Part shown: positions 5,562 to 43,322 of the stretch, in pieces
Numbering within the stretch: the first letter of the stretch is position 1
Layout: the number at the start of each line of letters is the position of its first letter
From: a candidate division WOR-3 bacterium
GTDB taxonomy: Bacteria > Hydrothermota > Tepidihabitantia > Tepidihabitantales > Tepidihabitantaceae
NCBI GenBank assembly: GCA_965648905.1
Contig: CBFGIT010000011.1
Coordinates: 3,810-67,809 of the forward strand
Direction of reading: 5' to 3'
DNA length: 64,000 nucleotides
The notes under the pieces: model-generated
The model's input: the letters and a program-made list of their open reading frames with translations, nothing else
Databases searched by the model: none
What the model was told of the DNA's origin: nothing
Translations under genes and position numbers: made by a program

Positions 5562-5647
5562 TCTGCCGTTCGCCCCTCGCCCTGCGCGGTTCGCCCCGGC
5601 CAGTCTACATTCTGACCTTTGACCGGCATCGGCCCTTCGCCGTCTCC

Positions 5648-5676
5648 TTGACTTTACTATCGGCTTTCAATATCCT
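5648..5676 (+). promoter_or_regulatory. sigma70-like promoter TTGACT-N17-TATCCT, 9 nt upstream of the ATG at 5686
   Basis: Read directly from the sequence. No Shine-Dalgarno fits between the -10 box and the ATG. Confidence 0.5.
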
Positions 5677-5685
5677 AGCTTGAGC

Positions 5686-6807
5686 ATGGCACACGCATAT
5701 ACTCCCGGACTGAAGGTAACCCAGCGGACTCTGGTACGGAAGCAGCGACGGCTGCCTCTGCCCGGCGAGACGCTGGTGAACCAGGGCCAGCGCGTCAAGG
5801 GCGACGACATCGTGGCGCGAACCGCGCTGCCCGGCAACGTAACAACGGTCAACGTCGGCGGCCTGCTCGGCGTGCCGCCCGAGGACGTTCCCTCGATGAT
5901 GGTTAAGCAGGCCGGTGACACGGTCAAGAAGGACGAGGTAATCGCTCTGTCCAAGGGCTTCTTCGGGCTGTTCCGGTCTGAGGTGAAGTCGCCGGTTACG
6001 GGCACGGTCGAGAACGTCTCGTCGGTCACCGGGCAGGTGATTCTGCGTGAGCCGCCCGAGCCGGTTCAGGTTGACGCGTACGTCGAAGGCGTGGTGAGCG
6101 AGGTCATTCCGCGCGAGGGCGTGGTTGTCGAAACCGAGGCGAGTCTGGTTCAGGGCATTTTTGGTGTCGGCGGCGAGGTACGCGGCATTCTGAAGACAAT
6201 CGTTGATTCGCCGGACCAGGTCGTGACCGCGCGCGAGATTCCGGTTGAGTGCCGGGGCATGGTGCTGGTCGGCGGTTCGCTCGTGACTTACGAGGCGATC
6301 GAGGCAGCACTGGCCCGGGGTGCGAAGGCGATTGTCGCCGGCGGCATCGAGGATGCGACCCTGCGCCGGTTCCTGGGCTATGACATCGGCGTGGCGATAA
6401 CCGGCTCGGAAAAGAAAGGTCTGACGGTGATTGCGACCGAAGGGTTTGGCGCGATGCGCATGGCCCAGAAGACATTTGACCTTCTCAGGTCGCTTGAGGG
6501 CAGAATGGCGTCGGTCAACGGTGCTACCCAGATTCGCGCCGGCGTCATCAGGCCTGAGATAATTGTGCCCCATGAGCACTCGGCTGCGTCTGCGGTTCAG
6601 AGCACGGTTGAAGGTGGCCTGGCGCTCGGGATTCCGGTGCGGATTATCCGCCAGCCCAATTTCGGCCGCATCGGCAAGGTGACGAGTTTGCCGGTCGAAT
6701 TGGCCGTGATTGAAACCGAGGCCCGAGCCCGGGTGCTTGAGGTGGAACTCGACTCGGGCGAACGTGTCACGATTCCGCGCGCCAACGTCGAAATCATCGA
6801 GGGCTAG
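5686..6807 (+). CDS. conserved hypothetical protein with lipoyl/barrel-sandwich-hybrid-like segments and no signal peptide
   Basis: Long ORF with balanced composition. Segments such as GDxVxxGxxIA and KSPVTGTVENV resemble hybrid-motif folds. The ORF track TTG at 5680 was replaced by the ATG at 5686. I do not recognise the family. Confidence 0.6.
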   Translation: MAHAYTPGLKVTQRTLVRKQRRLPLPGETLVNQGQRVKGDDIVARTALPGNVTTVNVGGLLGVPPEDVPSMMVKQAGDTVKKDEVIALSKGFFGLFRSEVKSPVTGTVENVSSVTGQVILREPPEPVQVDAYVEGVVSEVIPREGVVVETEASLVQGIFGVGGEVRGILKTIVDSPDQVVTAREIPVECRGMVLVGGSLVTYEAIEAALARGAKAIVAGGIEDATLRRFLGYDIGVAITGSEKKGLTVIATEGFGAMRMAQKTFDLLRSLEGRMASVNGATQIRAGVIRPEIIVPHEHSAASAVQSTVEGGLALGIPVRIIRQPNFGRIGKVTSLPVELAVIETEARARVLEVELDSGERVTIPRANVEIIEG

Positions 6808-15920: not shown

Positions 15921-17033
15921 CTACTTCGTCTTCTTCGGCTGGGGTCGGACCGCAGGCTTGGCTGCTGCCCGGGGCAGCGGTTCGGGCGCGGGATGCTTCG
16001 CGGGCTCGCGCAGCATGCGCTTCAGTCGGCGCATCACCTTGGGTGCGTGTTTGGGATTGGCACTCGCCCACGCCTTGACGTCTTCATCGTCGAGCACAAT
16101 CCGGCCGACAAACGCATCCGCCTGGATTGCCCGGTTGAACTCCTCGAGCGCCTGGTCAATGAGTCCCTGGTCAAGACGCACGACCGCGGCGAGCAGTCGG
16201 GCTGCGCCCCGGGCCTTGGGCCCGAGTTCCGGCAGCGCCTCAATCTGGGTTGCGTCATCGAGCGCCTCGTCAAACCGACCGAGCCTCAGGTTGGCGACCG
16301 CCCGATTGTGCCTGACCCGGAACCGAAGCCGCACATCAACATCATCCCGCTTCTGGGTGGCGTCGAGCCAGCGCGAGTAAGCGGCAACTGCTGCGGCGTA
16401 GTCGCGCAGGGCAAAGGCATCATCACCCGCTCTCAGGCTGTCAAGCGCCTGGACATAGTCAAGGGTCTTGCCCGCCCGGGCCAGGCAGGTCTCGGCCTGG
16501 CCGCGCACCGCGGCCACCGCCTTCAGGCCTTCGGCCACTTCGCCGGAGTGGGTATCGAGGTTCGCGAGCTCCCGGTTCAGCTTCGCGGCCTTGCCGTCAA
16601 GCTCGTCGAGGCGCTGCCGCGCGACAACGAGGTCGTTCTCAAGCCGGCTGATGTCGGCCTCGGTCGGGCCGGCATGAGGAGCGTTGCGCAGGGCGGCGAT
16701 TTCAGCCCGGGCCTGGGCCAGTGCCTGCTCGTTCTCGGTCGTCTTGCGCTTGGCCCGCAGCAGTTCGTCGCTCAGGTCATTGAACCGCTTGTCCCAGACC
16801 GCGCGGACGTTCTCAATCTCGGACAGGCGCGAACCATAGACCCAGATCCGCCAGGCGGCGACGAGCACCGCCAGAATCAGCACGACGATGACAACCAGGA
16901 ACCACCGGGACAGGTTCCGGTTGGTGATGTCAAGCGCCTTGAGTGCCGCATCGTAGCCGGGAAACTCGGTCGGCTGAGCGCTGGCTGCGGCGACCAGGGT
17001 CAGAACGAGAATTGCCAGAGTAGTCTTTTGCAC
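15921..17033 (-). CDS. signal-anchored coiled-coil / TPR-like protein with a Lys-rich tail
   Basis: Signal peptide, one TM helix, an Ala/Glu/Arg-rich coiled segment, and TPR-like helices. Preferred over the antisense ORF 15993..17138, which has Arg/Gly/Pro shadow-ORF composition. Confidence 0.5.
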   Translation of the reverse strand: MQKTTLAILVLTLVAAASAQPTEFPGYDAALKALDITNRNLSRWFLVVIVVLILAVLVAAWRIWVYGSRLSEIENVRAVWDKRFNDLSDELLRAKRKTTENEQALAQARAEIAALRNAPHAGPTEADISRLENDLVVARQRLDELDGKAAKLNRELANLDTHSGEVAEGLKAVAAVRGQAETCLARAGKTLDYVQALDSLRAGDDAFALRDYAAAVAAYSRWLDATQKRDDVDVRLRFRVRHNRAVANLRLGRFDEALDDATQIEALPELGPKARGAARLLAAVVRLDQGLIDQALEEFNRAIQADAFVGRIVLDDEDVKAWASANPKHAPKVMRRLKRMLREPAKHPAPEPLPRAAAKPAVRPQPKKTK

Positions 17034-17134
17034 GTTGCCTCTTTTCAGGCTGTGCCATTATTGCCTGATTCCGGCCCGAGTCAAGAAAGAACCCACCCGG
17101 ACATGTCCGGGTGGGGTAAGAAAGGAGACTCCGG

Positions 17135-18298
17135 CTAGCGGCCGATGACGACTTTCTCCGGCCTTGACACGGTCCCCGGACAGACGAAGTAGACGCCCGG
17201 GGCCAGGCGTGATACGTCGTTTGCGCCGGGCGCAAGCGCCATCACCTGCCGACCCTCGGCCGTGATGAGCGAAGCATGCTGAGTCATGAACGAGGCCGGC
17301 AGCCGCAGCGCGCCGCGGACAATCGTCGGCTCGGACCGGCGGCCTAAGGCCTGTGGGCAGGCGCGTTCCTCAACCGCGGTGACCGGCGAGCCGCGGAACA
17401 GCTCGACCAGGCCGTCGAACGCGCTGATGAGGAAATCCGGTGTGCCGTCGTTGTTCCAGTCTCCGAACCCGCAGCGCGAGCCGTAGTAGCTGCCCGATGC
17501 CCGGGTCGGAATGCCGTCGACAGTCTTAAGGGTCTCTTCCGCGGCCAGAACCGGGTCAGCATTTGTCCCGATGTTGCGGTAGAACCGCACATATCCGTCG
17601 TTCGCGCCGCAGATGAGGTCATGCACTCCGTCCTGGTCCAGGTCAAACACATACGGGTTGACCCGGTACAGGTAGATGGGCTGACCATCGGCAACGACGT
17701 TCGTGAAATCCTGAAACATCGGCCAGGTGTCGCTCGTCTGGTTCGGGTAGAACCGGATGTAGCCGGTCTCGGTTCCAAGCAGCAGGTCCTTCATGCCGTC
17801 GCCGTTCCAGTCCGCGACCGTGGGCTGGCTGTTGCTGCCGACGTCGAGCACGGTCGAGTCCATCAACTTGTACTGGTAGTATGCAGTCAGCTCATCACCC
17901 GAGCGGATGAAGACATTGAAGTACCCCTCCCGGTCGCCCGAGACGATGTCCCATTCTCCGTCGGAGTTCCAGTCCACAACCTGTGGACAAGATCCGACGC
18001 ATCAACCTGATGGCAGGGTTATCTGCGAGCCGCTGGCGTAGAGGTATTCGAACCCGTTGAACACCGGTGCTGAGTCCGGCCCGCGATTGGGGTAGAACCT
18101 GATGTAGCCGCCGGTGAACTGGCCGCACACCAGGTCCTTGGCACCGTCTAAGTTCCAGTCGAACATCACCGGTGCACCGTACCAGGTGACGTCGATGGGC
18201 ACACCGGCATCACAGATGGTATCCGGGCCGGTGAACCGCGGCGTCTCCGCGGCAAGTGGCAGGACCGCGGCAAGCACAAGCAGTACTAAGAAGCGCAC
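17135..18298 (-). CDS. five-blade FG-GAP/VCBS repeat protein with signal peptide and T9SS-type C-terminal domain, interrupted by one in-frame TGA (18002-18004)
   Basis: ORFs 18002..18421 and 17135..17977 share a frame (18421-17977=444). xDWNxDGxxD blades occur on both sides of the TGA. GTG start at 18298 with AAAGGAG RBS. C-terminus is IVRGAL ... LAPGANDVSRLAPGVYFV. Confidence 0.6.
17960..17998 (-). promoter_or_regulatory. SECIS-like nested hairpin starting 4 nt after the in-frame UGA
   Basis: The mRNA reads UGA UGC [GUCGGA] UCUU [GUCCACA] GGU [UGUGGAC] UGGAAC [UCCGAC]. Outer stem is 6 bp and inner stem 7 bp, all Watson-Crick. The apical loop contains GGU. Confidence 0.4.
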
Positions 18299-18330
18299 AG
18301 TATCTCCTTTCGTTCGCTCCGCTGCCAGAG

Positions 18331-18360
18331 ATGTTACTGCCGAACCAGCCCCGTTGTCAA
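18331..18360 (-). promoter_or_regulatory. sigma70-like promoter TTGACA-N18-TAACAT for the FG-GAP gene
   Basis: Plus strand shows atgtta at 18331-18336 and tgtcaa at 18355-18360. The same TAACAT -10 box recurs at 36592. Confidence 0.45.
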
Positions 18361-18421
18361 GGTTGGAGAGAGGACGAAGGAAAGGAGCGGAGGCGTGGAG
18401 CGCGCGGGGCGCGCCAGTCAA

Positions 18422-19627: not shown

Positions 19628-21490
19628 TCAGTCCAGCGCGACCTTGACCACTCTTGGTTCCAGGCCTGCCGGCAGCAGCACGAAGTAGACCCCGGGCGGA
19701 AGGTGGCGGACGTCGTTCGGGCCGGGCGCGAGCACCATCACTTTGCGGCCCGCAGCGTCGAGCAGAGCTGGTCTGGGGACACAATCCCAAACGTCGGACG
19801 TTTGGGTGATGTCCCTTGTCAGCCAGAGCACGCCGCGGACAATGGACGCATTCGTCATTCGGACTTCGGCCTTGGTCCTTTCCGCGATGCCCGTGCTCGG
19901 GCTGAAGCTCAAGTCGTCCCAGAAGTCATGGCCGCCGCGGCCTTCGAGCCAGAGACAAAGCCGGGCAAACTTTGTGTTGGCCGGCGCTTGTGCGATGCCG
20001 GTGGTCAGGTAGCGCCAGCCTGCACTGTCTGTGGCCAGCACGCCTGACGCGGCACTGCCCAGCACGTTGTACGCTGAGTCGTGCCACTGTATCAGGAGCT
20101 TTGCCCGGTTGTTCCTGCCGTCGTTCTTGTACGACCAGCCCGAGAACTCATAGCTTTCGCCGGGCAGTACCAGCACGTCCTGAAACAGCTTTGACTCGAC
20201 CGGCCAGGCTGCGCCCAGCGAGTCCGGGATGTGGCAGATGCTGGACCCGCCCGAGCGGACCAGTGCGGTCTCGCGCCGGTATTTGGCCTTGCGGCCCTCA
20301 TACCAGCCGACCGGGTTGGCTGATGTGTCAGACGGCACTGCCAGCGTATCAAGCTGCCAGGTCTCGGCGTCGCCATTGGTGAAGCTCGGATTGGGCCGGT
20401 TGAAGCTCTCGCGCAGTGCAGCCCAGAGCTCGGTGCGCGCAGCGTCGTAGCCCAAAGCCCACATCCCGGTCCCAAGCATGTTCTGCTCGTGCACTTTGCG
20501 ATACCGGAGCACAAGGCTTGTGTCGTCGTCGAACCAGCACTGGTACCAGCCGCCACTGTTGAACGCATACCAGGGCGACTGGCCCTCACTGTTCCAGCGG
20601 TAGCCGTGGGTCTGGGCCAGCCCGGCCGCGTCGCGGAAGTGCATTGCTGAACCCGGCCCGGTGGTGCGCGAGCGGACCGTGTCGGCATAGGTCGGCCACT
20701 GATACCCGTAGTAAGGCAGGCCGAACCAGACATCGCGCATGTGGCCAATCTGTCCCAGGTAGTGGTCTATTGCCATCTGCAGGTTGCCGTAGAAGGTCCA
20801 GCCGGAAAGCGGCGCAACCGGCCCGGCCTCAGGACCACCCATCCAGTGGAAATCATAGCCCATCAAGAACAAGCCGTCGGTCGTGTCCGCCAGGGCGCGA
20901 AGGTCGTAGGCGTTGTCCTGATTCAGAGGCGGCGTGGCCAGGGTCAGGTCCAGGCCGGCGGCCCGACAGGCCGCGGACATCCGCTGGACAAACAGGGTGA
21001 ACGTGTCGCGGTCCCCATACCACAGCCCTTCGAAATCGAGGTTGATGCCGTCAACCCCGGATGAGCAGGCCAGGGCGATAAGGTTGGGAATCGATGACGG
21101 TGCGCGGATAGCGCCGTGGATATTGGCCCAGTCAAAGCAGGTCGCGACCATCTCGACCTTGACGCCGTTGCGGTGGGCACGGTCGATGACGGCGGCCCAG
21201 TGGCGCGGGAAGTTGTTCGGGTTGGAGATGGAGCCGTCCGGGTTGAGCGTCACGTCGAACAGGCCGATGCGGTCGAGCAGGTCGTAGTGGAGCCAGCGCA
21301 TGTCAACCCAGTACGGCGAATAGCCGTAGATTGAGCGGGTAAGACTGGTCTCAGGCCGGGGAACAAGTGGAGCAGGCCGGCCTGAGAATGGTTCGGGCCG
21401 CACGGGCCGGCCCCGGTGCATTTCGGCATGGTCCTGGTGTCCGGCCAGCGCAACCGTGCAGATGAGCAGCAGACTGATGGAGCGGAGCAT
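19628..21490 (-). CDS. secreted GH18 (chitinase-like) glycoside hydrolase with a CBM-like domain and T9SS-type C-terminal domain
   Basis: GH18 catalytic motif VDGINLDFEG. The middle domain has the FTNGDAE..W pattern. C-terminus is IVRGVL ... LAPGPNDVRHLPPGVYFV. Confidence 0.8.
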   Translation of the reverse strand: MLRSISLLLICTVALAGHQDHAEMHRGRPVRPEPFSGRPAPLVPRPETSLTRSIYGYSPYWVDMRWLHYDLLDRIGLFDVTLNPDGSISNPNNFPRHWAAVIDRAHRNGVKVEMVATCFDWANIHGAIRAPSSIPNLIALACSSGVDGINLDFEGLWYGDRDTFTLFVQRMSAACRAAGLDLTLATPPLNQDNAYDLRALADTTDGLFLMGYDFHWMGGPEAGPVAPLSGWTFYGNLQMAIDHYLGQIGHMRDVWFGLPYYGYQWPTYADTVRSRTTGPGSAMHFRDAAGLAQTHGYRWNSEGQSPWYAFNSGGWYQCWFDDDTSLVLRYRKVHEQNMLGTGMWALGYDAARTELWAALRESFNRPNPSFTNGDAETWQLDTLAVPSDTSANPVGWYEGRKAKYRRETALVRSGGSSICHIPDSLGAAWPVESKLFQDVLVLPGESYEFSGWSYKNDGRNNRAKLLIQWHDSAYNVLGSAASGVLATDSAGWRYLTTGIAQAPANTKFARLCLWLEGRGGHDFWDDLSFSPSTGIAERTKAEVRMTNASIVRGVLWLTRDITQTSDVWDCVPRPALLDAAGRKVMVLAPGPNDVRHLPPGVYFVLLPAGLEPRVVKVALD

Positions 21491-22658: not shown

Positions 22659-23714
22659 TCAGGCAGGAGGTGCTGGTTGTAGTTCCTCGAAAGGGAGGCC
22701 GCGGCGCTGGTGCCAGGCCGGCACGTCGCCGAAGTAGTCGGCTATTTCGGCGTGTTCCTGGTCGGTGAGGAGGCTAATTTGGCGGGGAATTCGGTCAGAG
22801 AGGGCGGCGTCGCGGTTGGTGAGAGAGAAAAGCCTGACCCCGGCCTGTTCGAGTTCGAAGCTGCCGTGTTGCTGGCGGTCAAAGAGGACGAGGCAGGAGT
22901 CGATCTCCCCACCCCAGGCGCGGATCTGGTGTATGACCCGGGTCTTGGTCCAGCCGTGAACCATCGTATCATCGACCAGCAGGACCCGCTTGCGGAAGAG
23001 CTCGTGGTTCCTGATGCCTTCGAACGGGCTGGCTTCGGGATAGCGCTGTTCGCGTCGGGCGAAGAACATCGGCCGGGCGAGCTTCTGAGCGAGCAGGGCG
23101 GCAATCGCGATTGAGCCGGCTTCGATACCACAGATGAGATGGAAGTCGAGGTTGCGAATAAGCAGGGCGGCTGAGGCGATGATGAAGTCGTTCGCTTCCG
23201 GGTAGTTGGAGAGGCCTTTGACATCGATGTAGATTGGGCTGTAGTTGCGTCCGGCGTCGACACGATACAGGGGCCGAAGGTCACCCATGCTCACTTTGAT
23301 GGCGCCGATCTGCCAGAGCACGGCGGCGACGGTCTCGGCAAGGTTCCCGGACATGAGGCTGCGAATCTGCTCCAAGTCGGGCCGGATAATCCGTTGTTCG
23401 CGCAGGAGCCGATAGAACTTGGTCGCCTCGGCCGGTTCCAGCTCGAGCGCAAGCCGGGTCTGGTCGAGGTCATAGATGACGTGGAATCTTCCCAGCTCTC
23501 GGGTCGGGCCGAGCAGGGGATAGGTCTCGGCGTTGGATTCGCGCTGCCGCGGGCCGAGGGCCTTGGCCGACGGGTTGATGAGTCGGGCGTAGGTCCGGAA
23601 AAGGTCGTCGGCGAGTGCCGCGACTTCTTCGTATTCGAGGATGTATGGTGTGGTAGCGCGGACAACCGGGCCGGCACACTCAATTTCCCGCAATGGAACC
23701 TGTTTGAGTTTCAT
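22659..23714 (-). CDS. pyrE: orotate phosphoribosyltransferase with a 120-aa N-terminal extension (core could start at the ATG at 23354)
   Basis: OPRT core: YSPIYIDVKG, GIEAGSIAIAALLA, PRPP loop VLLVDDTMVHGWT. The extension is in frame with no stop and is not recognisable to me. Confidence 0.65.
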   Translation of the reverse strand: MKLKQVPLREIECAGPVVRATTPYILEYEEVAALADDLFRTYARLINPSAKALGPRQRESNAETYPLLGPTRELGRFHVIYDLDQTRLALELEPAEATKFYRLLREQRIIRPDLEQIRSLMSGNLAETVAAVLWQIGAIKVSMGDLRPLYRVDAGRNYSPIYIDVKGLSNYPEANDFIIASAALLIRNLDFHLICGIEAGSIAIAALLAQKLARPMFFARREQRYPEASPFEGIRNHELFRKRVLLVDDTMVHGWTKTRVIHQIRAWGGEIDSCLVLFDRQQHGSFELEQAGVRLFSLTNRDAALSDRIPRQISLLTDQEHAEIADYFGDVPAWHQRRGLPFEELQPAPPA

Positions 23715-23759
23715 CGCCGGCGGGCCGAGGACACTCCCGAATCCGAGAGTGAAGTCGGG

Positions 23760-24404
23760 CTATGTCCCCCTTGAGGCCTTGAAGCTCTGGAAGCGGGCGC
23801 TGTAGAAAAAGTTCCAGAGGGCCCGGGTCTTGCGCCGCAGCTCGGCCATCGAGCCTTTGTTCTCGAACACAAAGTCAGCACGACGCCAGACGCTCAGGTC
23901 CGGCTGCTGAAGTTTGAGTCGGGCTTTGACCTGTTCGACGCTCATTCCGACCTGGGTCATGCGCTCGACCTTGAGCCGCTCGGGTGCGGTGACCAGAATC
24001 GAGACATCCATCTCTTTGTCCAGTCCCCAGAAGAACAGAAGAGCAGCATCAACAACAACCAGCCCCTTCCGGTGCCGGTCGATCTCCTGACGCACGCGGG
24101 CGATCAGGGTCGGGTGGACGATGCGGTTCAGCTTGTTCAGGCTGGCGCGACTGGCAAACGCGGCATCGGCCAGGGCCCGGCGATCAACCCGGCCGCTCTT
24201 GGTCAGGATCGAGCGCCCGAAAGTGCGCACGACCGCTCGGTATTCAGGCGTGCCCTTGTTCAGGATGCCCCAGCCCATCTCGTCGGCGTCGATGACCTTG
24301 GCGCCGTAGCGGACCAGTTCGGCGGCAACCGTAGTCTTGCCCGCTCCCATGTTGCCGCCGATGCCAATGAGCAGCCGGTCCTGGGACAGCTTGCGGTCGA
24401 ACAT
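23760..24404 (-). CDS. coaE: dephospho-CoA kinase
   Basis: IGIGGNMGAGKTT P-loop, IDADE motif, and expected length. Confidence 0.85.
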   Translation of the reverse strand: MFDRKLSQDRLLIGIGGNMGAGKTTVAAELVRYGAKVIDADEMGWGILNKGTPEYRAVVRTFGRSILTKSGRVDRRALADAAFASRASLNKLNRIVHPTLIARVRQEIDRHRKGLVVVDAALLFFWGLDKEMDVSILVTAPERLKVERMTQVGMSVEQVKARLKLQQPDLSVWRRADFVFENKGSMAELRRKTRALWNFFYSARFQSFKASRGT

Positions 24405-24410
24405 CTTCGG

Positions 24411-25196
24411 CTACAGAACCTTGGCTTCTTCGTGCAGAAGCCGCACCAGCTCGGGCACGGCACTGCCCGGTTCACCTTCGATTACCCGGCCCGGCTTGCG
24501 GCCGGGCGGCAGACGGTCTTCGATGTACTCAAGCCGGCGGCTGAGCTGGTCTGTTCCGACCCCAAGCGCCGCCGCATCAAACACCGGAATCTCCTTGCGC
24601 TTGGCGGCCATCATCAGCTTCAGGGTTGGGTAGCGCGGCTCATAGGCGGCCTTGCCGATGGTGACGAGGCAGGGGAGTTTCGCGACCACAACCTCGGTCG
24701 CGCCTTCGACCTCGCGCCGGGCGGTAAGCTCACCGGTCTCCGGCGCCGCGGTCAACTCGGTGACGGCAGCAACATGCGGCAGGTCAAGAAAATGGGCGAT
24801 GGCGGCCGGTACCGCGGCCTGGTCGTCATCGACCGCCTGTCGGCCGCACAGTACCAGGTCATGGGACATCTTCTTCAGGGCCGCGGCCAGAACCCGGCCG
24901 ACCGAAAGCGCGTCGAGGTTGTCGAATCCCGGGTCGCTCAGATGAACCGCGCTGTCCAGACCCATTGCCAGACACGTCCGCAGCGCGGCTTTGACCCGAT
25001 CCGGCCCCAGGCCGACTGCCGTCACCGTTCCGGCCTGCAGCTTCTCCCTGATTCTCAGCGCGGTCTCAAGCGCGTACTCATCGAACGGATTGATGACCCA
25101 GTCGGCATCAGAGAGGTCGACGAACCCGGTCTGTGTGTTGACGCGGATTCTGGTTTCGGTCGAGGGAACCTGCTTGACGCAGACGACGATGTTCAC
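24411..25196 (-). CDS. etfB: electron transfer flavoprotein beta subunit
   Basis: MNIVVCVKQVP ... INPFDEYALE ... LVLCGRQAVDDD signature. Confidence 0.85.
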   Translation of the reverse strand: MNIVVCVKQVPSTETRIRVNTQTGFVDLSDADWVINPFDEYALETALRIREKLQAGTVTAVGLGPDRVKAALRTCLAMGLDSAVHLSDPGFDNLDALSVGRVLAAALKKMSHDLVLCGRQAVDDDQAAVPAAIAHFLDLPHVAAVTELTAAPETGELTARREVEGATEVVVAKLPCLVTIGKAAYEPRYPTLKLMMAAKRKEIPVFDAAALGVGTDQLSRRLEYIEDRLPPGRKPGRVIEGEPGSAVPELVRLLHEEAKVL

Positions 25197-25199
25197 CGA

Positions 25200-26459
25200 T
25201 TAGCCCTCGAACGCCCTGAGGCAGAGCGAAACGTTGTGCCCGCCGAAGCCGAACGAGTTGGACAGAGCGGCCCGAATCGAGCACTCCCGGGCCGAACCTC
25301 TCACAAAGTCCAGGTCCACGCCCTCGTCAGGTTGCTCGTGGTTGACCGTCGCATGGACCCGGTTGTGCTTAATCGACAAGGCGGTTGCAACCAGCTCCAT
25401 CGCCCCGGCGGCGCCGAGGCCGTGACCGATCATCGACTTGGTCGAGTTGACGGCCATCCGGCGGGCGTGGTCGCCGAACAGCTCGACGATGGCCTTGACC
25501 TCGGTCGCGTCGTTGAGCGGTGTCGACGTCCCGTGGGCGTTGACATAGTCGATGTCATCGGGTGTAAGCCCGGCTTCGGTCAAGGCGCGACGCATTGCCA
25601 TGATCGCTCCGAGCGCCGCCGGGTCGGGTGCGGTGATGTGATGGGCGTCGGCGGTTGCGCCGAACCCGGCAAGCTCGCAGTAAATCGGCGCGTTGCGGCG
25701 CACGGCATGGCCGAGCTCTTCAAGGACATAGACGGCGCAGCCTTCGCCGATGACGAATCCGTCCCGGTTGCGGTCGAAAGGCCGGGACGCTTTGCCCGGC
25801 TCGGCGTTACGCTTCGACAGAGCGCCCATGTTTGAGAACGCCGCGACCGTAAACTTGGTGATTGCGGCCTCTGAGCCGCCGGTAATCATCACGTCGGCAT
25901 CGCCGGCGATGATGTGGCGCATCGCGACACCGGTGGCGTGCGCTCCCGAGGCACAGGCCGACGTCGTGTCGTAATTCGGGCCGCGCAGTCCGTAGCTGAT
26001 GGCAATCTGGCCGCAGGCCATGTCGGGAATCATCATCGGGATTAGGAACGGCGACACCCGTCGCGGCCCCTTCTCCAGGAACATGGCGTGCTGCGCTTCC
26101 CAGGTCTGAACCCCGCCCATACCCGAGCCGATGATTGCGCCGACTCGGTTACGGTCCAGGGCGTCGAAGTCCAGCCGAGCATCCTTGACCGCTTCGTCCG
26201 CGGCGTAGAGCGCAAACTGCGTGAACCGGTCGCTGCGCTTCACCAGCTTCGGGTCAAGACGCTTCGTCGGGTCGAAGTCCTTGACCTCGGCGCCAATCTG
26301 GACCTCGAGGTCGGCCGGGTCGAACGCGGCAATGCGCGCGATACCGGTCTGACCCTGCAACAGGCTCTGCCAGAAGCCGGGGACATCGTTACCGACCGGT
26401 GTGACCGCGCCCAGCCCGGTCACGACCACGCGCCGGCGACCGCTAACCTCGGTTGCCAT
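25200..26459 (-). CDS. fabF: 3-oxoacyl-ACP synthase II
   Basis: RVVVTGLG, active-site TACASG, HGTSTPLND, and GHNVSL C-terminus. Confidence 0.9.
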   Translation of the reverse strand: MATEVSGRRRVVVTGLGAVTPVGNDVPGFWQSLLQGQTGIARIAAFDPADLEVQIGAEVKDFDPTKRLDPKLVKRSDRFTQFALYAADEAVKDARLDFDALDRNRVGAIIGSGMGGVQTWEAQHAMFLEKGPRRVSPFLIPMMIPDMACGQIAISYGLRGPNYDTTSACASGAHATGVAMRHIIAGDADVMITGGSEAAITKFTVAAFSNMGALSKRNAEPGKASRPFDRNRDGFVIGEGCAVYVLEELGHAVRRNAPIYCELAGFGATADAHHITAPDPAALGAIMAMRRALTEAGLTPDDIDYVNAHGTSTPLNDATEVKAIVELFGDHARRMAVNSTKSMIGHGLGAAGAMELVATALSIKHNRVHATVNHEQPDEGVDLDFVRGSARECSIRAALSNSFGFGGHNVSLCLRAFEG

Positions 26460-26488
26460 CGAAACTCATGCGGAATCGGCCGAGAAGA

Positions 26489-31238: not shown

Positions 31239-32522
31239 TCAGAAAAGCCCCATCTGCTGTCCGGGTTCGACGTCCTTGAGCGCGGCCCGTGACGCGGAGT
31301 CGGGCAACACGCGCACCACGCCGAACACGCCGTCGTACCCGGCAGTTGCCCGAACCTCACCGGCCCGCATCCGTTCGACCCCGAGCGCAACCCGCTCGCC
31401 GGCGTGCCGTTCGATTTCGCTCGTCGGCGCATTGAGGAGAACCTCGAACTCGTTGCCCAGCTCCTTGACAAGGCCCTCGTAGACCTTGTGGACCCCGGCG
31501 GTATCGCGGCCTGCGCCCAGGGCCTCGCCGATAATCTCCTCGAGCGGAACCAGGTGCTTGAACGGGATGCGGTCCGACGGTACCTCTTCCGGTCGGCGGT
31601 CGGCCAGCTCCTCGACCCGGTGCAGCACGCCGACGGTCAGTTGCCGGCCGCAGACCGGACAGAGGTTGTTGTTCAGCAGCGACTCGGCCGGCGACAGACT
31701 GATGCCGCAGGCCCGATGGCCGTCGAAGTGGTACTTGCCTTCCTCGGGAAAAAACTCGATGGTGTAGAGGAATCGGCGCTGATCCCGATCCTTGAGCGCC
31801 TGGCGCACGCCATCGTAGGTCAGCTCGCAGTCAAAGACGTTGGCCTCTCGACCCAGCCGGTTGGGCGAGTGGGCGTCCGAGTTGGAGATGAGCGCGCGGG
31901 CATCGAGTGCCGACAGCCGCCAGTTCATCGGTGGGTCGCTCGACAGCCCGGTCTCGACCGCGAAGACCTCGCCCGAGAGGTCGCCGAAGCACTCTTCAAT
32001 TGTATCAAACCCGGAGTTCGAACCGTAGAGCGAGAACCACGGCGTCCAGATGTGCGCCGGAACGACGAATGCCCGCGGGTCAAGTTCGAGTACCTTGGCC
32101 AGAATATCGCGGCTTGAGACGCTGAGCGTGGGCCGGCCGTCTGAAGCCAGCTTGCCGTAGCCGTCAAGCCAGGAGGTCAGCCGGGCCGCGGTCTCGAAAC
32201 TCGGAACAAAGACCATGTTGTGAATCCGGCGCAGCCGGCCGCCCGAGCTGTAGATGCTGTTCAGTTCGACGTTGAGCATGAAGTAGGTGTCGTCGTGCAC
32301 GAACAGACCGTTGCCGGTCGGTTTCAGGTTCGTCTTGAGCGACTTGGCGTACTCCGGATGGGTGAAATCGCCGGTGCCGAGCAGCCTGATGCCCTTGGTT
32401 CGGGCGGCAACCGAAAGCGCCGGGATGTCCATATCCCGGCTCGTGGCGCGGGAGAACCGGGAATGAATGTGCAGGTCGGCGATGAACTGCATCTTCGCCA
32501 TTCTAGCCGCCCTGCGCCTCAA
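31239..32522 (-). CDS. PHP-domain endonuclease Q-like protein
   Basis: N-terminus ADLHIHSRFSRATS ... LGTGDFTHP and a zinc motif CPVCGRQLTVGVLHRV, as I recall them from EndoQ. The start could be one of three nearby Met codons. Confidence 0.6.
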   Translation of the reverse strand: MRRRAARMAKMQFIADLHIHSRFSRATSRDMDIPALSVAARTKGIRLLGTGDFTHPEYAKSLKTNLKPTGNGLFVHDDTYFMLNVELNSIYSSGGRLRRIHNMVFVPSFETAARLTSWLDGYGKLASDGRPTLSVSSRDILAKVLELDPRAFVVPAHIWTPWFSLYGSNSGFDTIEECFGDLSGEVFAVETGLSSDPPMNWRLSALDARALISNSDAHSPNRLGREANVFDCELTYDGVRQALKDRDQRRFLYTIEFFPEEGKYHFDGHRACGISLSPAESLLNNNLCPVCGRQLTVGVLHRVEELADRRPEEVPSDRIPFKHLVPLEEIIGEALGAGRDTAGVHKVYEGLVKELGNEFEVLLNAPTSEIERHAGERVALGVERMRAGEVRATAGYDGVFGVVRVLPDSASRAALKDVEPGQQMGLF

Positions 32523-32540
32523 GTCAAAGAACGAACCCGA

Positions 32541-35988: not shown

Positions 35989-36480
35989 CGCCGAGGACCG
36001 ACCGGCTGAACGATTGTTGTCTGGTTTTCACTGCTCATACCATCGGCTGGGACGTAAGCAGCATTCAGCTCCAAAGCTAAAGCCGGACAGCACGCCGAGG
36101 CAGTCGCCGGCCTGACCGCACAGCCCCCGGGCAGACCAACTGCCTGATTGTCGGCCCGTGTCTCCGCTTGAGCGTGCGTCCGCGGCAGCGCACAAGACCT
36201 GACCTGAAGCAGCACTCCCGGTAACGCCCGAAGAGACGTCTGCGGCATTGCGCGCGGCACGACGTCAGGCAGAAACACAACAGACGTGCCTTTGGTTGCA
36301 ACACTCAAGGCATGTGCACAGAGCATATGGGAGACCGGGGAGGACTTGACATTGCCGGCACTGTAACATCATCACCGGCAAGAACTTAGACCAATTCCGA
36401 CCCCATCGGCCAAGTATAAGGAGTGCCATAATCATGAATCGTGCAGGCCGTCGCCTTCGCGAAACCCTTGCTGCTCGCAA

Positions 36481-36505
36481 CTGGCCATTGGCACCTGGCC
36501 ATTGG
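36481..36505. repeat. direct repeat CTGGCCATTGG-CAC-CTGGCCATTGG upstream of the promoter at 36568
   Basis: Two identical 11-mers 14 nt apart, start to start. They contain TTGGC-N5-GCCAA dyad symmetry. Confidence 0.6.
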
Positions 36506-36567
36506 GCATTCCCGACACAAGCGGGCCGCAGATTGCCTCGGACATCAAGTACCGGCCTGCCCCAAAA

Positions 36568-36597
36568 TTGACAGACGCCTGTGTCCGGGTGTAACAT
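36568..36597 (+). promoter_or_regulatory. sigma70-like promoter TTGACA-N18-TAACAT
   Basis: About 35 nt of leader with GAGGAGG before the ATG at 36633. Confidence 0.45.
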
Positions 36598-36632
36598 GGT
36601 GTCGGTCCATGACGGCACAAGAGGAGGCCAAA

Positions 36633-39329
36633 ATGTATCGAGCCGCTGTGTTCGCAACAATCGTAGTGCTGTCCGCTTTCCTGCCGCTTGAGGCAGCAGA
36701 GCCGGCTTACGGGCCGAGCCGAAGGGGAAGCGTCTGTCAGTTGTTGAAGCAACGCCTGCCCCCCTGGTATCCTGCCTGGCCAAGCGAGGCAACCGGTCGA
36801 GCACGTCCGCGGTCAGGCCCGAAGGCAGAGCCGGCAGGCCGGTTCGGCGATGCGTTCATGATTGACACCGGACTGGTGCTCGGCCCGGCGATGGGCAGCC
36901 AGCATTCGTACGGCGTAGCATCGAACGGTGAGGGTTGGTTGGTAATGTGGAATGATACCAGGGACTATTCCATGCGGACCGCACGCGTCGGGCCAGACTG
37001 CTCGCTGCGTGACACGAACGGAGTCATCATCGGCCATTCCCAGTCGTACACAACCGGCATTACCCGGGCTTTGGCCGGGACCGGGCCCGGTTTCATTGCG
37101 GTCTGGGTTGGCGGCGACCCATGGATGGGTGATGTCTGGGCCGCGCGGCTCGACTCAACCGGCAGACCGATTGATTCCTTCCTTGTCTATGAGGCAGACT
37201 TCAGGCAGCAGCAGGCAGCACTTGCTTTTGACGGCGACTCGGTCTGTCTGGTGGTCTGGTCCGCAGACGCGGGCGAGTATCTGTCCAATATCTATGCCGC
37301 GCGGGTGACAACGAGCGGCCGCGTGCTCGACCCGGAGCCGTTCCCGGTGGCGCAGCAGCCCGACCTGGACGAATCCGGCCCTGCAGTCGCGTACGGCAAC
37401 GGGGTATTTCTTGTGGCGTGGCAGCAGTTCGACACGGTCAACTACGAGGCTCATGTCAAGGCAATCCGGGTCTCGCGCTCCGGCACTCTGCTCGACACTG
37501 CCTTCTTCCTGCATCGCGACCCTGGGATGATGCAGGCCTACCCGGCCCTCGCCTTCGGCGACACCTGTTTCCTTGCGACCTGGGCCGAGGGTTGGGATGA
37601 GCCGGACGTGTACGCGGCCCGGGTCACTGGGTCCGGCCGCATACTTGACCCGGAAGGCGTGCGGCTGAGCAACACCACCAACTACGACCTGTTCCCGTCC
37701 GCAGCCTTCGACGGCAACCGTTACCTTGTCGCCTGGACCGAGCTGGACTGGACCAGCGACCAGGTCGAGCTGCGCGCTCGGCGTGTGACCACAGCCGGTG
37801 TACCCCTTGACTCCGGACTCATCCGGGTGTCAGTCGGCGGCCGCATGTGTTTCTTCCCCAGCGTGGCTGCGGACCGTGCGAACTACCTTATCGGTTTCGA
37901 CACTGAGGACACGCTGACCGGTGACGGTGACGTCTGCTGTGCGCGCATCAACTTCTCCGGCGTGGTCCTTGACACCGGCCTGCTCCTGCCCCTGGGCGGA
38001 CAGGAGCAGTTCGGCCCGCGTGGAGCTTTTGACGGCGAGAACTTCCTCGCGGCGTGGCTGGAGTCGAGCAAAGACGGCTATCGGATTGAAGGCGCCCGGG
38101 TGCGTCCGGACCGCACGGTGCTTGACCCAACCGGGTTTGCGGTCTGCGATGCGGCCGGATACAAGTACAGTCTCGCGGCCGGGACTGCGGACTCACTCAT
38201 GCTCGTCGCGTGGGCCGACCAGCGGAATGGCGAAGACGACATCTACTGCGCCCGGGTGACGCGCGACGGCAGGTCGCTTGACCTGGACGGCATCGTGGTC
38301 TGTGACGAAATGGGCTACGAGGGAACACCCGGCGTCGGGTCTGACGGCTCGAACTTTCTTGTCGTCTGGCAGGACTATCGGAATGGGTGGGACTACGACA
38401 TCTACGCGGCCCGGATCAGACCTGATGGAACCGTACTCGACCCGGACGGGTTCGCGGTCACGGCCGACACCAACAACGCAACCAATCCGGCTGTCAGCTT
38501 CACGGGCAGCAACTATTTAGTGGTCTGGGAAGAATCGAATCAGACAACCTGGGAAACGGATATCTACGGTGCGCTTGTCAGCCCGGCCGGGACGATTACC
38601 AGACCGCGATTCCCTGTTAGCGTCGGAAACGGTGACCGGCGGATGCCGACCGTCGCCCGCGGGCCGGACAACCTGCTTGTTGCGTGGCAGGACAGTCGCA
38701 TCTCCGGCGGAAGCGACATCTACGCGACCCGGATGCGGCCCGACGGCACCGTGCTCGACCCGAACGGCCGCCGGATCGCCTGGACCAGCTACTACGAAGA
38801 GATGCCGCGCGCGGTGTTCAGCAACGGCAACTTCCTTCTGCTCTGGCGATGCTCGGGCACGGACACCGCGTTCGTTGCCGGTGCTGAAGTGGACACGGCC
38901 GGCAACGTCGTGCGTCGGTTTGAACTTACGGACCTGCCGCCGATGTACGGGTTCGATGTGGTGGCAGGGACCGGTTCGGAACCGCTGCTCCTGTTCGACT
39001 GCTGGACCGACACCGCGTACGGCCGGACGTACGACAACCAGCGGGTCTGGGGCAGATTCGGCCCGTTCATCGGCCTGGCCGAAGCCCCTGCGCCGCACGC
39101 CATGCGTCGCCCGCCCGGCCCGACCATCCTCCGCGGTATCCTCAATCTGCAATCTGCAACTTGCAATCTGCACTCTGAAACGGTCCTGCTCGACATCTCT
39201 GGTCGGAAGGTGCTCGACCTCGCGCCCGGTCCGAACGACGTGTCGCGCCTTGCAGCCGGTGTCTATTTCCTCGACACACCGGGATCCGAAAGGCCATCAC
39301 CAACTGGCAAAGTGGTAATACTAGAATGA
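36633..39329 (+). CDS. large secreted repeat protein (about 13 copies of an ~55-aa unit) with T9SS-type C-terminal domain
   Basis: Start moved to MYRAAVFATIVVLSAF (signal peptide, strong SD). Repeat consensus is P.vAfdG.n.LVvW.D.R.g..DIYaARv...G.vLDP.G. C-terminus is ILRGIL ... LAPGPNDVSRLAAGVYFL. Confidence 0.7.
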   Translation: MYRAAVFATIVVLSAFLPLEAAEPAYGPSRRGSVCQLLKQRLPPWYPAWPSEATGRARPRSGPKAEPAGRFGDAFMIDTGLVLGPAMGSQHSYGVASNGEGWLVMWNDTRDYSMRTARVGPDCSLRDTNGVIIGHSQSYTTGITRALAGTGPGFIAVWVGGDPWMGDVWAARLDSTGRPIDSFLVYEADFRQQQAALAFDGDSVCLVVWSADAGEYLSNIYAARVTTSGRVLDPEPFPVAQQPDLDESGPAVAYGNGVFLVAWQQFDTVNYEAHVKAIRVSRSGTLLDTAFFLHRDPGMMQAYPALAFGDTCFLATWAEGWDEPDVYAARVTGSGRILDPEGVRLSNTTNYDLFPSAAFDGNRYLVAWTELDWTSDQVELRARRVTTAGVPLDSGLIRVSVGGRMCFFPSVAADRANYLIGFDTEDTLTGDGDVCCARINFSGVVLDTGLLLPLGGQEQFGPRGAFDGENFLAAWLESSKDGYRIEGARVRPDRTVLDPTGFAVCDAAGYKYSLAAGTADSLMLVAWADQRNGEDDIYCARVTRDGRSLDLDGIVVCDEMGYEGTPGVGSDGSNFLVVWQDYRNGWDYDIYAARIRPDGTVLDPDGFAVTADTNNATNPAVSFTGSNYLVVWEESNQTTWETDIYGALVSPAGTITRPRFPVSVGNGDRRMPTVARGPDNLLVAWQDSRISGGSDIYATRMRPDGTVLDPNGRRIAWTSYYEEMPRAVFSNGNFLLLWRCSGTDTAFVAGAEVDTAGNVVRRFELTDLPPMYGFDVVAGTGSEPLLLFDCWTDTAYGRTYDNQRVWGRFGPFIGLAEAPAPHAMRRPPGPTILRGILNLQSATCNLHSETVLLDISGRKVLDLAPGPNDVSRLAAGVYFLDTPGSERPSPTGKVVILE
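39145..39179 (+). repeat. second copy of the heptanucleotide tandem (AATCTGC AATCTGC AACTTGC AATCTGC ACTCTGA)
   Basis: Read directly from the sequence. It is in the same position of the sorting domain as 35803-35837. Confidence 0.7.
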
Positions 39330-40742: not shown

Positions 40743-43322
40743 ATGCGTTCGTCGACAATGCTCCGGGTGGTGATACTCGGTACGGCCGTTTCGGTCGCGC
40801 GCGCAGGCCCGCTTCCGCCGCCCGCTGTCCTCATCGACTCCGCGGTGGCTTTCGTCCGTTCTGACCGCGACCAGAGAAACCCGGCCGCGGCATTCGATGG
40901 GTCGAACTGGCTGGTGGTCTGGGAAGACAAACGCGGTGACGACGAGGCGATCTGGGGTGCCAGATTCTCAGCGGCCGGAGTACTGCTTGACTCCGCCAAC
41001 ATATGCATTGCCGACGACACCGAGGAACGAACTCAACCCAAGGTGGCATTCAACGGCACCTGCTTTCTCGTGGTCTGGCAGGATGGCCGCAACCGTTCCT
41101 ACGACATCTACGGTGCGAGGGTGACTCCGGCCGGGGCCTTGCTCGACCCGGATGGGTTCATGATCTCGCGGTCCGACCAATCCGATATATACCCAACGGT
41201 CGCGAGTTCGGGGTCGGATTTCTTGGTCGCCTGGGAAGACCATCGCAACTCCGGCAATGACGAAGACATCTACGCCGCCAGAGTCATCGGGTCCGGCGTG
41301 GTACTCGACACCGTCAACATCGCGGTTTCGACCGCCCGGGCCAGACAGGAGAACGTCGTCGTGACCGGCTACAGCGGTGGCTACCTCCTGGCCTGGACGG
41401 ACTTCCGGAACGAGGCGACGACGGGCGAGGACGTATATGTCGCCCGAGTCAGCTCTGCCGGCAGCGTGCTCGACCCTGACGGCATCGCGGTGTCGTGTCT
41501 GTCCCAGACTCAGCACTGCCCGCAGTCGGCCTCGGACGGCACAAACTGCCTCGTTGTCTGGGAAGACTATCGTAATGCGAGCGGCGACATCTACGGCGCG
41601 CGCGTTTCCAATGCCGGTGTGGTGCTCGACCCGTCCGGCCTGCCCATTCACGCGTCGAGTACCTTCTGGCAGGGCGACCCGTCCGTGGCTTACACCGGAA
41701 GTCAGTTTCTTGTCGTCTGGGAAGACGATAGCGTGACCGGCGGCGGTAATTGCGACATCCTAGCCTCGCGCGTGACGACCACGGGACAGGTCCTTGACCC
41801 ATCGGGCTTGGTCGTGACATCGGCGCCCGCGAACGAATACTACCCGGCCATCGTCCGGGGCGGCTCGAATCTCCTCGTCGCCTGGCAGGACTACCGTAAC
41901 GGCGAGGACCCCGATATCTACGCGACTCGCGTCAGTCTCGACGGCGCGCGGCTCGATACTGCCGACGTGATGCTCTCGCGCATCATGTATGCTTATGAGC
42001 AATTCACCCCGGCCGCTGCTTTTGATGGAGCGAACTTCCTGACGGTCTGGTCCGACCTGCGCACCTGCCAACAGCAGGTCTTCGGCGCGCGGATTACCCC
42101 CGGCGGGACACTGCTCGACCCCGGCGGTTTCTACATCGGTACCAACCCGTTCACGACGATTCCTGTGCCGGCGCTTGCTTTCGGGACGAGCAACTACTTG
42201 GTGGCGATTAACGGCGGTCTGAACAACTTCGTGGTTGAGGCCGCGCGGGTGACGCCCGCCGGCGGTGTTCTCGATACCAACTGGCTCTACACCGCCATCT
42301 CCGGCCGGGACGGCACTCCGCCCGCGGTCGCCTCCGACGGCAGCAACTGGCTGATTGTCGCCGCCTTCAAGGACTTTGGCAACCAGTACAACGTCCAGGG
42401 TGTGCGCATCGCGCCCTGCGGCACACGGCTGGACTCTACTCCGTTCCGCATCGCGTACGGCCCGCGCGACATGTGCTACCCAGCAGCCACGTTCGGGCTG
42501 CAGAACTATCTCGCGGTCTGGCAGGACTTCCGGAGCAGTCTGACGTACGACATCTACGGCGCGCGTATCAGCACCGATGGGGCTGTGCTCGATTCGGGAA
42601 TTGCCATCTCAACCGCAGCCACCAGCCAATACGCGCCTTCGGTTGCATTTGACGGGACCAACTGGCTGGTCACATGGCAGGACAACCGCAATGGCGGAGA
42701 GCGCGAGCTCTTCGGCACGCGGGTCAGTCAGTCGGGCACGGTCCTTGACCCAAGCGGGATAAGGATAGGCTCATGCCCGGACAACTACGAAGACGCGGCG
42801 GCCCTTGCCTTCGACGGCACGAACTACTTCGCAGTCTGGCAGTGGCGGAACTGTGGTAACGGCGACCTGTGGGGGGCGCGCATCAGCCCGGCCGGAGTTG
42901 TGATTGACACCTTCCCGGTCTGCACCGCGCCGGAGTATCAGGCAACACCCGCGGTCGCTGTCGGCGCCGGCGGGACCAAATTCGTCTCCTATTCCGGCTA
43001 TGTTTCGACCCTGCACGGTTACCCGGCAGAGAAAATGCGCATCTGGGCCGGCATCTACCCGTTCTACGGAATCAGCGAAACGATGAACGATGAAAGCGGA
43101 ACGACGAAAGTCGGGCCAACCATCGTGCGCGGTGTGCTTCAGATGGCGACTGGCGAAGAGCGAAAAGCGAATGGCGTCCTGCTTGACGTCGCGGGCCGCA
43201 CGGCGCTGGACCTGAAGCCCGGCCCGAACGACGTCTCCCATCTCACGTCGGGGGTGTACTTCGTCCGGATGGTGGACGGCGATGAACGATCGGTCAACCC
43301 CAAGGTTGTGGTCACGCAGTAG
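40743..43322 (+). CDS. large secreted repeat protein, paralogue of 36633..39329, with T9SS-type C-terminal domain
   Basis: About 13 copies of the same unit (e.g. FLVVWQDGRNRSYDIYGARVTPAGALLDPDG). Signal peptide and C-terminus IVRGVL ... LKPGPNDVSHLTSGVYFV. Confidence 0.7.
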   Translation: MRSSTMLRVVILGTAVSVARAGPLPPPAVLIDSAVAFVRSDRDQRNPAAAFDGSNWLVVWEDKRGDDEAIWGARFSAAGVLLDSANICIADDTEERTQPKVAFNGTCFLVVWQDGRNRSYDIYGARVTPAGALLDPDGFMISRSDQSDIYPTVASSGSDFLVAWEDHRNSGNDEDIYAARVIGSGVVLDTVNIAVSTARARQENVVVTGYSGGYLLAWTDFRNEATTGEDVYVARVSSAGSVLDPDGIAVSCLSQTQHCPQSASDGTNCLVVWEDYRNASGDIYGARVSNAGVVLDPSGLPIHASSTFWQGDPSVAYTGSQFLVVWEDDSVTGGGNCDILASRVTTTGQVLDPSGLVVTSAPANEYYPAIVRGGSNLLVAWQDYRNGEDPDIYATRVSLDGARLDTADVMLSRIMYAYEQFTPAAAFDGANFLTVWSDLRTCQQQVFGARITPGGTLLDPGGFYIGTNPFTTIPVPALAFGTSNYLVAINGGLNNFVVEAARVTPAGGVLDTNWLYTAISGRDGTPPAVASDGSNWLIVAAFKDFGNQYNVQGVRIAPCGTRLDSTPFRIAYGPRDMCYPAATFGLQNYLAVWQDFRSSLTYDIYGARISTDGAVLDSGIAISTAATSQYAPSVAFDGTNWLVTWQDNRNGGERELFGTRVSQSGTVLDPSGIRIGSCPDNYEDAAALAFDGTNYFAVWQWRNCGNGDLWGARISPAGVVIDTFPVCTAPEYQATPAVAVGAGGTKFVSYSGYVSTLHGYPAEKMRIWAGIYPFYGISETMNDESGTTKVGPTIVRGVLQMATGEERKANGVLLDVAGRTALDLKPGPNDVSHLTSGVYFVRMVDGDERSVNPKVVVTQ

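Follow-up and report, generated by a model that had tools for sequence, protein, structure and literature searches.

A putative selenoprotein family of secreted FG-GAP propeller proteins in candidate division WOR-3-like bacteria

In Escherichia coli fdhF, an in-frame UGA lies directly before a hairpin within the coding region, and the same layout is found in a gene of the DNA analysed here, a window (the whole stretch analysed) of 64,000 nucleotides (64 kb) from contig CBFGIT010000011.1 of a candidate division WOR-3 bacterium, where a minus-strand frame (18298..17135) for a predicted secreted FG-GAP repeat protein contains one internal UGA and, just downstream of it, a hairpin resembling a selenocysteine insertion sequence (SECIS). 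Both apical loops contain G-G-U; that of E. coli fdhF (GGUC) starts 18 nt past its UGA, and that of the family to which the window gene belongs 20 nt past the UGA. The fdhF apex region reads ..GCAGGUCUGC.., and its apex CAGGUCUG compares with CAGGUUGUG or CAGGUCGUG in the family, whose CA-GGU-Y is similar. The bulged U of the fdhF stem presumably has no counterpart in the family hairpin. The fdhF protein is unrelated to the FG-GAP family, and in the latter the binding of the elongation factor SelB is putative.

The GCUG motif of mammalian thioredoxin reductase is a selenenylsulfide redox centre. Adjacent selenocysteine (Sec) and Cys residues are catalogued in the CopZ-like 2Fe-2S-binding protein ('GxUC') and, as 'CU', in HgcA, the MerB-like SaoL and MbdU, and such dyads act as a redox centre or soft-metal ligand (PMC13188914). 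The candidate resembles these families and mammalian thioredoxin reductase, as its Sec would adjoin a Cys in a Gly-rich loop, but it differs from the dyad families in its FG-GAP propeller, its U-C order, the internal position of the loop and its extracytoplasmic location, and no relevant match was found for it among the NCBIfam models. Predicted envelope or extracellular selenoproteins include an FCYXU-type TonB-dependent receptor, an outer-membrane protein of the MtrB/PioB family, the ExtKL cytochrome and a selenobacteriocin (PMC13188914), which share with the candidate a site of action outside the cytoplasm, whereas none of them is a beta-propeller or a cargo of the type IX secretion system (T9SS) and they belong to other phyla. 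The 2026 catalogue of 119 prokaryotic selenoprotein families has no FG-GAP, VCBS or propeller entry in its Table 1 (PMC13188914), and the literature searched for selenoprotein or selenocysteine together with FG-GAP, VCBS, WOR-3 or type IX secretion gave unrelated co-occurrences only.

Judged from sequence comparison, the window gene very probably represents a genuine, previously uncatalogued selenoprotein family, namely a secreted FG-GAP propeller of five repeats that contains a G-U-C-x-G site and is apparently restricted to WOR-3-like bacteria. An earlier note made from the window sequence had put forward two readings, a candidate selenoprotein and a very recent pseudogene. The first of these is supported by the exclusive use of TGA at the site, coding sequence on both flanks, the fit to SECIS elements, selection at the RNA level and the absence of the hairpin from most sense-coded relatives, while the second is refuted by the TGA that occupies one and the same codon in each of the 76 related, motif-bearing loci, together with at least 120 C-terminal and more than 110 N-terminal protein clusters.

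The gene (17135..18298; this and all of its features given below are on the minus strand) has a GTG start and consists of a single frame of 387 codons followed by TAG, whose sole internal stop in the window translation is the TGA at 18004..18002. This triplet (18002..18004) is codon 99, the predicted selenocysteine codon, and its context is ITLPSG-TGA-CVGSCPQVVDWNSDG; the residues read through across codon 99 would be ITLPSG-U-CVGSCPQVVDWNSDGEWDIVSGDR. It is followed by the UGC of Cys100 (17999..18001), the invariant partner of the predicted Sec in the motif G-U-C-x-G. Mechanical calling of open reading frames (ORFs) yields two pieces in one frame, 18002..18421 and 17135..17977, and the whole gene supersedes the fragments 18002..18298 (98 amino acids) and 17135..17977 (280 amino acids). 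The claim of the earlier note that one coherent frame crosses the TGA is borne out, as 18298..17135 translates with the TGA as its only interruption, and the translation contains each of the five motifs listed there (FDWNLDG, VDWNSDG, ADWNGDG, FDLDQDG and GDWNNDG) as well as the hydrophobic N-terminus (VRFLVLLVLAAVLPLAA) claimed as a signal peptide. Most likely, 18298..17135 is thus one intact monocistronic gene for a 387-residue exported protein.

The read-through protein was searched against 5.8 billion protein clusters, which returned the window's own fragment and, as the best 120 matches, proteins with 47-75% identity and 238-309 amino acids that span only the part after the TGA, begin at MDWNSDG or MGSSPQVVDWNSDG without a signal peptide and, where a source name is given, are called candidate division WOR-3 or simply 'bacterium'. 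A profile built from the N-terminal part matched more than 110 clusters, which are 97-101 amino acids long and each end ...LP[SY]G. The DNA of relatives was taken from 20 species-representative metagenome-assembled genomes (MAGs), named candidate division WOR-3 or unclassified, and from 66 metagenome contigs, and it contains 76 motif-bearing loci (62 distinct sequences). TGA followed by a Cys codon occurs at the identical position in 76/76 loci, with the consensus [ILV]x[LV]P[SYA][GA]-TGA-TGY(Cys)-x-G-x-x-P-[QR]-x-V-D-W-N-[SA]-D. The earlier note had pointed to orthologues for deciding whether this position is Cys or UGA and whether the hairpin co-varies; none of the 76 loci has a Cys codon there, and hairpin pair 23-27 does co-vary. 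Only TGA is used at the site in the 62 distinct sequences, never TAA or TAG, although the genes range from 33 to 68% GC and 52 distinct family genes end in TAG (30), TGA (12) or TAA (10).

A signal peptide and first blade in the same frame upstream of the TGA are conserved in the motif-bearing loci, and every complete relative has a hydrophobic leader and, behind it, xPRFxGP. The codon alignment shows purifying selection on both halves, and the TGA site is kept down to about 48% amino-acid identity. One of the loci (L019) is located on a complete WOR-3 chromosome, CP070680.1, near 2.455 Mb. Two contigs in ENA from different samples, L114 (1-509, k141_2132076) and L115 (1-511, k141_3027380), with proteins P0129 and P0132, carry two in-frame TGA-TGY modules each, 116 codons apart (ITLPSG-U-CVGSSPQVVDW ... 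ITLPYG-U-CVGASPQVVDW), which makes it probable that certain paralogues have at least two selenocysteines. Three of these four modules have their own hairpin, the second module of L115 being cut by the contig end. The MAG CBDUZK01 (SRR22302361_concoct_155) encodes two diverged paralogues, L013 and L015, both with TGA-Cys, the latter in the variant form C-A-G-P-C-P-R-Y-V-D-W with the loop GUA.

In the published model of the bacterial SECIS (bSECIS), a stem of 4-16 bp carries a loop of 3-9 nt with a G in its first two positions, lies 16-37 nt from the UGA and has a minimum free energy (MFE) of -7.5 kcal/mol or lower (PMC13188914). The 66 nt around the TGA of the window gene have an MFE of -25.6 kcal/mol, and as the z-score against shuffled sequences is only -2.4 (5 of 200 fold equally well), the window sequence alone gives modest, suggestive evidence; the strength of the hairpin evidence lies in the comparison with relatives. 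The 13 base pairs described earlier (GUCGGA/UCCGAC and GUCCACA/UGUGGAC, loop GGU) do form in the window sequence, where the apical loop GGU (17979..17981) begins 20 nt after the UGA, in line with the approximate distance given before. Alignment of 62 distinct 54-nt segments starting at the TGA (positions counted from the U of UGA) reveals a near-invariant upper stem and loop, (A)GUCCAC(A/G)-GGU-(U/C)GUGGAC(U), at 17971..17989 of the window. Pairs 18-32, 19-31, 20-30, 21-29 and 22-28 are present in 60-62 of the 62 sequences, pair 17-33 in 54 and pair 16-34 in 51, while G24, the first base of the loop, never varies. At pair 23-27, 39 sequences have A-U, 10 have G-C and 13 have a mismatch, which turns the loop into AGGUC. 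Below the upper stem, the register 14-36, 11-39 and 10-40 (98-100% each) suits the family, so that the family-conserved SECIS-like hairpin extends over positions 10-40 (17965..17995) with 85% of cells paired. With its stem of 7-8 bp, GGU loop, 20 nt spacing and mean MFE of -21 kcal/mol over 54 nt, the family hairpin agrees with the published model in all four bSECIS criteria, and the layout of a bacterial SECIS asserted in the earlier note is thereby supported.

The 19-nt core of the hairpin has a mean MFE of -9.3 kcal/mol in the family and of -2.0 kcal/mol in the other blades of the same genes (n=65). Eight sense-coded relatives sharing P-[RQE]-x-V-D-W were compared at the DNA level, and in seven of them the core region is unfolded (-0.1 to -3.8 kcal/mol). 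The core sequence without an upstream TGA-TGY has no occurrence in the approximately 0.8 Mb of DNA examined.

Codon usage in the stem indicates that the hairpin is under selection at the RNA level. In a codon alignment of 48 distinct full-length genes, which are 48-80% identical to the window protein, pairs with the same amino acid share the codon in 51% of cases on average over the gene and in 77% in the windows of the upper stem, the maximum of the gene (9-codon windows). The stem Pro is CCA in 61 of the 62 sequences, a codon that accounts for 7% of Pro codons in the window and 14% in the family genes, and the stem Val is GTG in all 62. The stem Ser is mostly AGU, a rare codon, Gln is always CAG and never CAA, and Arg is CGG only. 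All ten sequences with G23 (Arg CGG) have C27 (Fisher p = 2e-6, phylogeny ignored), and the pair switches between A-U and G-C at least three times on a neighbour-joining tree, as in L007 (CAG-GUU) beside L009 (CGG-GUC). Most of the stem pairs are invariant and hence uninformative on compensation.

When the 98-residue N-terminal piece was searched exhaustively with phmmer against 1.84 billion representatives, 148 of them were matched, of which only three have at least 57% identity, all being fragments of about 100 amino acids; no sense-coded relative above 48% identity was found in this search. The loop x-G-C-[LMQ]-G-x-[FY]-P-R-x-x-[DY]-W is present in 36 of the 148 representatives (37 motif matches), with the shared Cys kept in 35 of the 37 matches and a second Cys, giving CxxC, in several of these sense-coded relatives. 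Sense-coded FG-GAP/VCBS proteins such as P0318, P0334, P0126 and L103, with the loop G-C-[LMQ]-G-x-[FY]-P-R-V-V-[DY]-W, are like the family (33-48% identity) in their repeat architecture, in the loop between blades 1 and 2 and in the same conserved Cys, but they have Gly at the Sec site, often CxxC, no hairpin in seven of the eight compared, and different C-terminal modules (dockerin-like or PEP-CTERM-like). As the aligned residue is Gly and the neighbouring Cys is shared, Sec would have been set beside a pre-existing conserved Cys, without a Cys-to-Sec exchange; the change from GGA to UGA is a single substitution. The U-C...C arrangement expected in the earlier note holds for its first part only: the U-C dyad is conserved (76/76), whereas most relatives have Ser or Thr in place of the second Cys (GSCPQ), which leaves U-C, and not U-C...C, as the conserved dyad. 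If it is a selenoprotein family, it looks obligately Sec-dependent, since no Cys-type orthologues occur among the matches from about 5.8 billion protein clusters.

Several observations weigh against a selenoprotein. In 32 of the 37 motif matches of sense-coded relatives it is Gly that aligns with Sec, with only the adjoining Cys in common, and neither the cluster search (best 120 matches) nor the phmmer search contains a homologue with Cys at the Sec position. To our knowledge, almost all selenoprotein families possess Cys homologues, and the missing Sec/Cys pair is the main internal weakness of the interpretation as well as what makes the family unusual. Of the two nested stems described in the earlier note, the upper one (7-8 bp) is found family-wide, while the outer stem GUCGGA/UCCGAC is not conserved: it pairs in only about 34-74% of sequences, and the extended hairpin that includes it (17959..17999) is a feature of this sequence and some relatives only; the lower register given above suits the family as a whole better. 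A search of Rfam gave no match at the gathering threshold and only chance-level long non-coding RNAs at E<=10. The remaining one of the eight sense-coded relatives, L119 (201-1247; protein P0258, GCA_016931035.1, JAFGFN010000087.1), reads D-L-S-M-G-S-G-P-R-V-V-D-W at codons ~123-135, with CTG TCG (Leu-Ser) in place of TGA TGC, and retains an 8-bp hairpin, GGUCCGCG-AGU-CGUGGACU, of -10.4 kcal/mol, with the loop AGU and not GGU; Sec may have been lost in its lineage, or the hairpin could be older than the Sec codon. Searches of the 64-kb window and 0.73 Mb of related loci by tblastn, with SelA, SelB and SelD of E. coli as queries, and by ARAGORN detected no selA, selB, selD or tRNA-Sec gene, which is uninformative because hits in so small a sample were never likely, and the literature searched contains nothing on Sec use in WOR-3.

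Some of these observations would also be expected if the UGA were recoded to an amino acid other than Sec, through hairpin-aided read-through by a near-cognate or dedicated tRNA inserting Gly, Cys or Trp; one candidate is a Cys-charged tRNA resembling tRNA(Sec). The frequent Gly at the aligned position, the lack of a Cys orthologue in both searches and the failure to see Sec machinery in a sample too small to tell all speak for such recoding, as does the existence of UGA=Gly and UGA=Trp codes in other bacterial lineages. It is nevertheless unlikely, since a tRNA reading UGA would pass the genuine UGA stops too (those of accA, topA and valS and 12 of 52 family terminators), TGA would be held over GGN or TGY at this divergence only if it encoded something beyond sense codons, and the hairpin geometry and GGU loop are those of SelB-binding SECIS elements. 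The specific form in which a hairpin directs UGA decoding at this site alone, to Gly or, via an unusual tRNA, to Cys, in a phylum without selA, selB and selC is considered slightly less probable again. If true, this form would represent a novel type of programmed stop-codon recoding in bacteria that depends on structure. The probability outside the selenoprotein reading falls mostly to recoding of the UGA to a residue other than Sec in general, which would be more novel than a selenoprotein.

Termination at the UGA would give two conserved adjacent genes, one for a 98-residue secreted one-blade protein and one for a protein of about 280 residues restarting at the GTG of VVDW, with a hairpin that would function in coupling or mRNA stability. 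This agrees with all public gene calls, which split each relative into pieces of about 100 and 290 amino acids, and with the GTG found nine codons past the TGA in every family member. Against it, and making it distinctly improbable, the stop at the site is never TAA or TAG though terminal stops vary freely, and the eight 'intergenic' codons from the TGA to this first possible restart codon are conserved as protein, with C, G and P invariant. The window sequence has no ribosome-binding site, promoter or terminator between the two halves, and no ribosome-binding site ahead of the VVDW GTG. A separate downstream product would possess the secretion tail yet lack a signal peptide, and the sense-coded relatives are all single chains, among which a split after blade 1 is unprecedented.

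The weakest explanations are a pseudogene, a strain-specific nonsense mutation or an assembly or sequencing error, the probability of which is negligible as the same TGA recurs in 76 independent contigs, which come from many studies and assemblers, and in 62/62 distinct sequences while terminal stops vary, and, with an equally negligible probability, a genome-wide reassignment of UGA to Trp or Gly, which is contradicted by the accA, topA and valS stops, by the single coding-flanked TGA and by the 12 of 52 family genes that are TGA-terminated. As was stated before for accA and topA, TGA is an ordinary stop elsewhere in the window: the TGA stops of accA, topA and valS coincide exactly with the ends of their Pfam profiles, which are completely covered, so that TGA can be regarded as an ordinary stop in this genome. 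In a scan of the 64 kb based on GC content at third codon positions, the TGA of the present gene is the sole one with a coding signal on both sides, while the only other hit is a terminator-like hairpin that follows a stop.

According to the selenoprotein reading, the mechanism would be ordinary bacterial Sec insertion. The mRNA would form the bacterial SECIS hairpin immediately after the UGA, its GGU loop starting 20 nt downstream. Bound to this hairpin, a SelB-type elongation factor loaded with Sec-tRNA(Sec) would insert Sec at UGA codon 99, taking the place of release factor 2. The predicted Sec and the invariant Cys, which sit between the last strand of blade 1 and the first strand of blade 2, would then form a Sec-Cys centre on an extracytoplasmic propeller. 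Since Sec adjoins an invariant Cys and the sense-coded relatives have G-C-x-G, often with C-x-x-C, this is most likely a redox or soft-metal-binding centre (selenenylsulfide/selenolate). By analogy with integrin-type propellers, the Sec-Cys loop may lie on the ligand-binding face.

If the reading is correct, the family would be a selenoprotein family with a beta-propeller instead of a thioredoxin-like fold, exported and probably displayed or released via type IX secretion, with a vicinal Sec-Cys dyad made by replacing a conserved Gly, and the uncultured phylum WOR-3 would be a selenium user. Hundreds of database entries, annotated as 'hypothetical protein' of about 100 amino acids and 'VCBS/FG-GAP repeat protein' of about 290 amino acids, would represent the halves of one gene, and the 62 distinct natural SECIS variants would provide training material for bacterial selenoprotein predictors.

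The window protein matches Pfam FG-GAP_3 (PF13517, E=1.8e-18) and also FG-GAP (PF01839). The AlphaFold model of the part after the UGA (predicted local distance difference test score, pLDDT, 90) contains four four-stranded blades (2-5) and a C-terminal beta-sandwich, which with the N-terminal blade make five FG-GAP-like repeats of a beta-propeller (17369..18202; Pfam, AlphaFold model and Foldseek), each with a DxNxDG loop. Foldseek retrieved FG-GAP-type propellers only (BBS7/BBS2, ITFG2, CRTAC1, TcB and the fungal lectin PVL), and its search of the PDB gave generic propeller matches and no lead on function. The predicted signal peptide comprises residues 1-17 (18248..18298), VRFLVLLVLAAVLPLAA followed by ETPRF, with a predicted cleavage site. 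The C-terminal beta-sandwich (17138..17347; model residues 226-286) is provisionally identified, by homology, as a sorting domain of the T9SS C-terminal domain type. As to the T9SS-type tail named in the earlier note, many homologues contain PF18962 or PF13860, and the tail is shared with a neighbouring glycoside hydrolase family 18 (GH18) protein, but the window copy itself has no Pfam or NCBIfam match at E<=0.01. The assignment follows by homology from the PF18962 of homologues and the tail of the GH18 neighbour, and the predicted exported protein may accordingly be secreted by this route.

A ribosome-binding site (AAAGGAG, 18304..18310) lies 5 nt upstream of the GTG start, and AAAGGAG or AAAGGAA is found 5-6 nt ahead of the start codon in the relatives checked. 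A promoter-like site, TTGACA-18 nt-TAACAT, is predicted further upstream at 18331..18360 (consensus scan, 2 sites versus 0.3 expected), and an intrinsic terminator with a 10-bp GC-rich stem followed by TTCTTTCTT was detected by sequence scan 20 nt past the TAG (17083..17115).

The upstream neighbour (19628..21490, minus strand) encodes a 620-residue chitinase-like GH18 protein whose last ~85 residues are the same kind of sorting tail, which also matches the tails of family members in other loci. The downstream neighbour (15921-17033, minus strand) is a membrane-anchored tetratricopeptide repeat (TPR)/coiled-coil protein, which adjoins the gene in six loci, those with high identity (56-87%) being just the four closest, L001, L046, L047 and L050. 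The full-length GH18 neighbour recurs in two loci. As the TPR and GH18 neighbours recur only among closer relatives, they give no operon clue to function. A tRNA-Leu(GAG) gene is located approximately 200 nt downstream of the selenoprotein candidate in six loci (L008 7214-7297, L014 2829-2912, L055 3792-3873, L062 4221-4303, L070 2829-2912 and L086 4226-4309), while the window itself has zero tRNA genes in its 64 kb. Elsewhere in the window, strong-coding ORFs (433-963 amino acids) without a Pfam match at E<=1e-5 are present at 36438-39329, 40743-43322, 31239-32540 and 5623-6807. The region 22659-26465 (minus strand) contains four consecutive genes in the same frame, encoding a beta-ketoacyl synthase, an electron transfer flavoprotein (ETF)-domain protein, CoaE and a phosphoribosyltransferase-domain protein, each of which begins directly past the preceding stop, probably as a result of tight operon packing.

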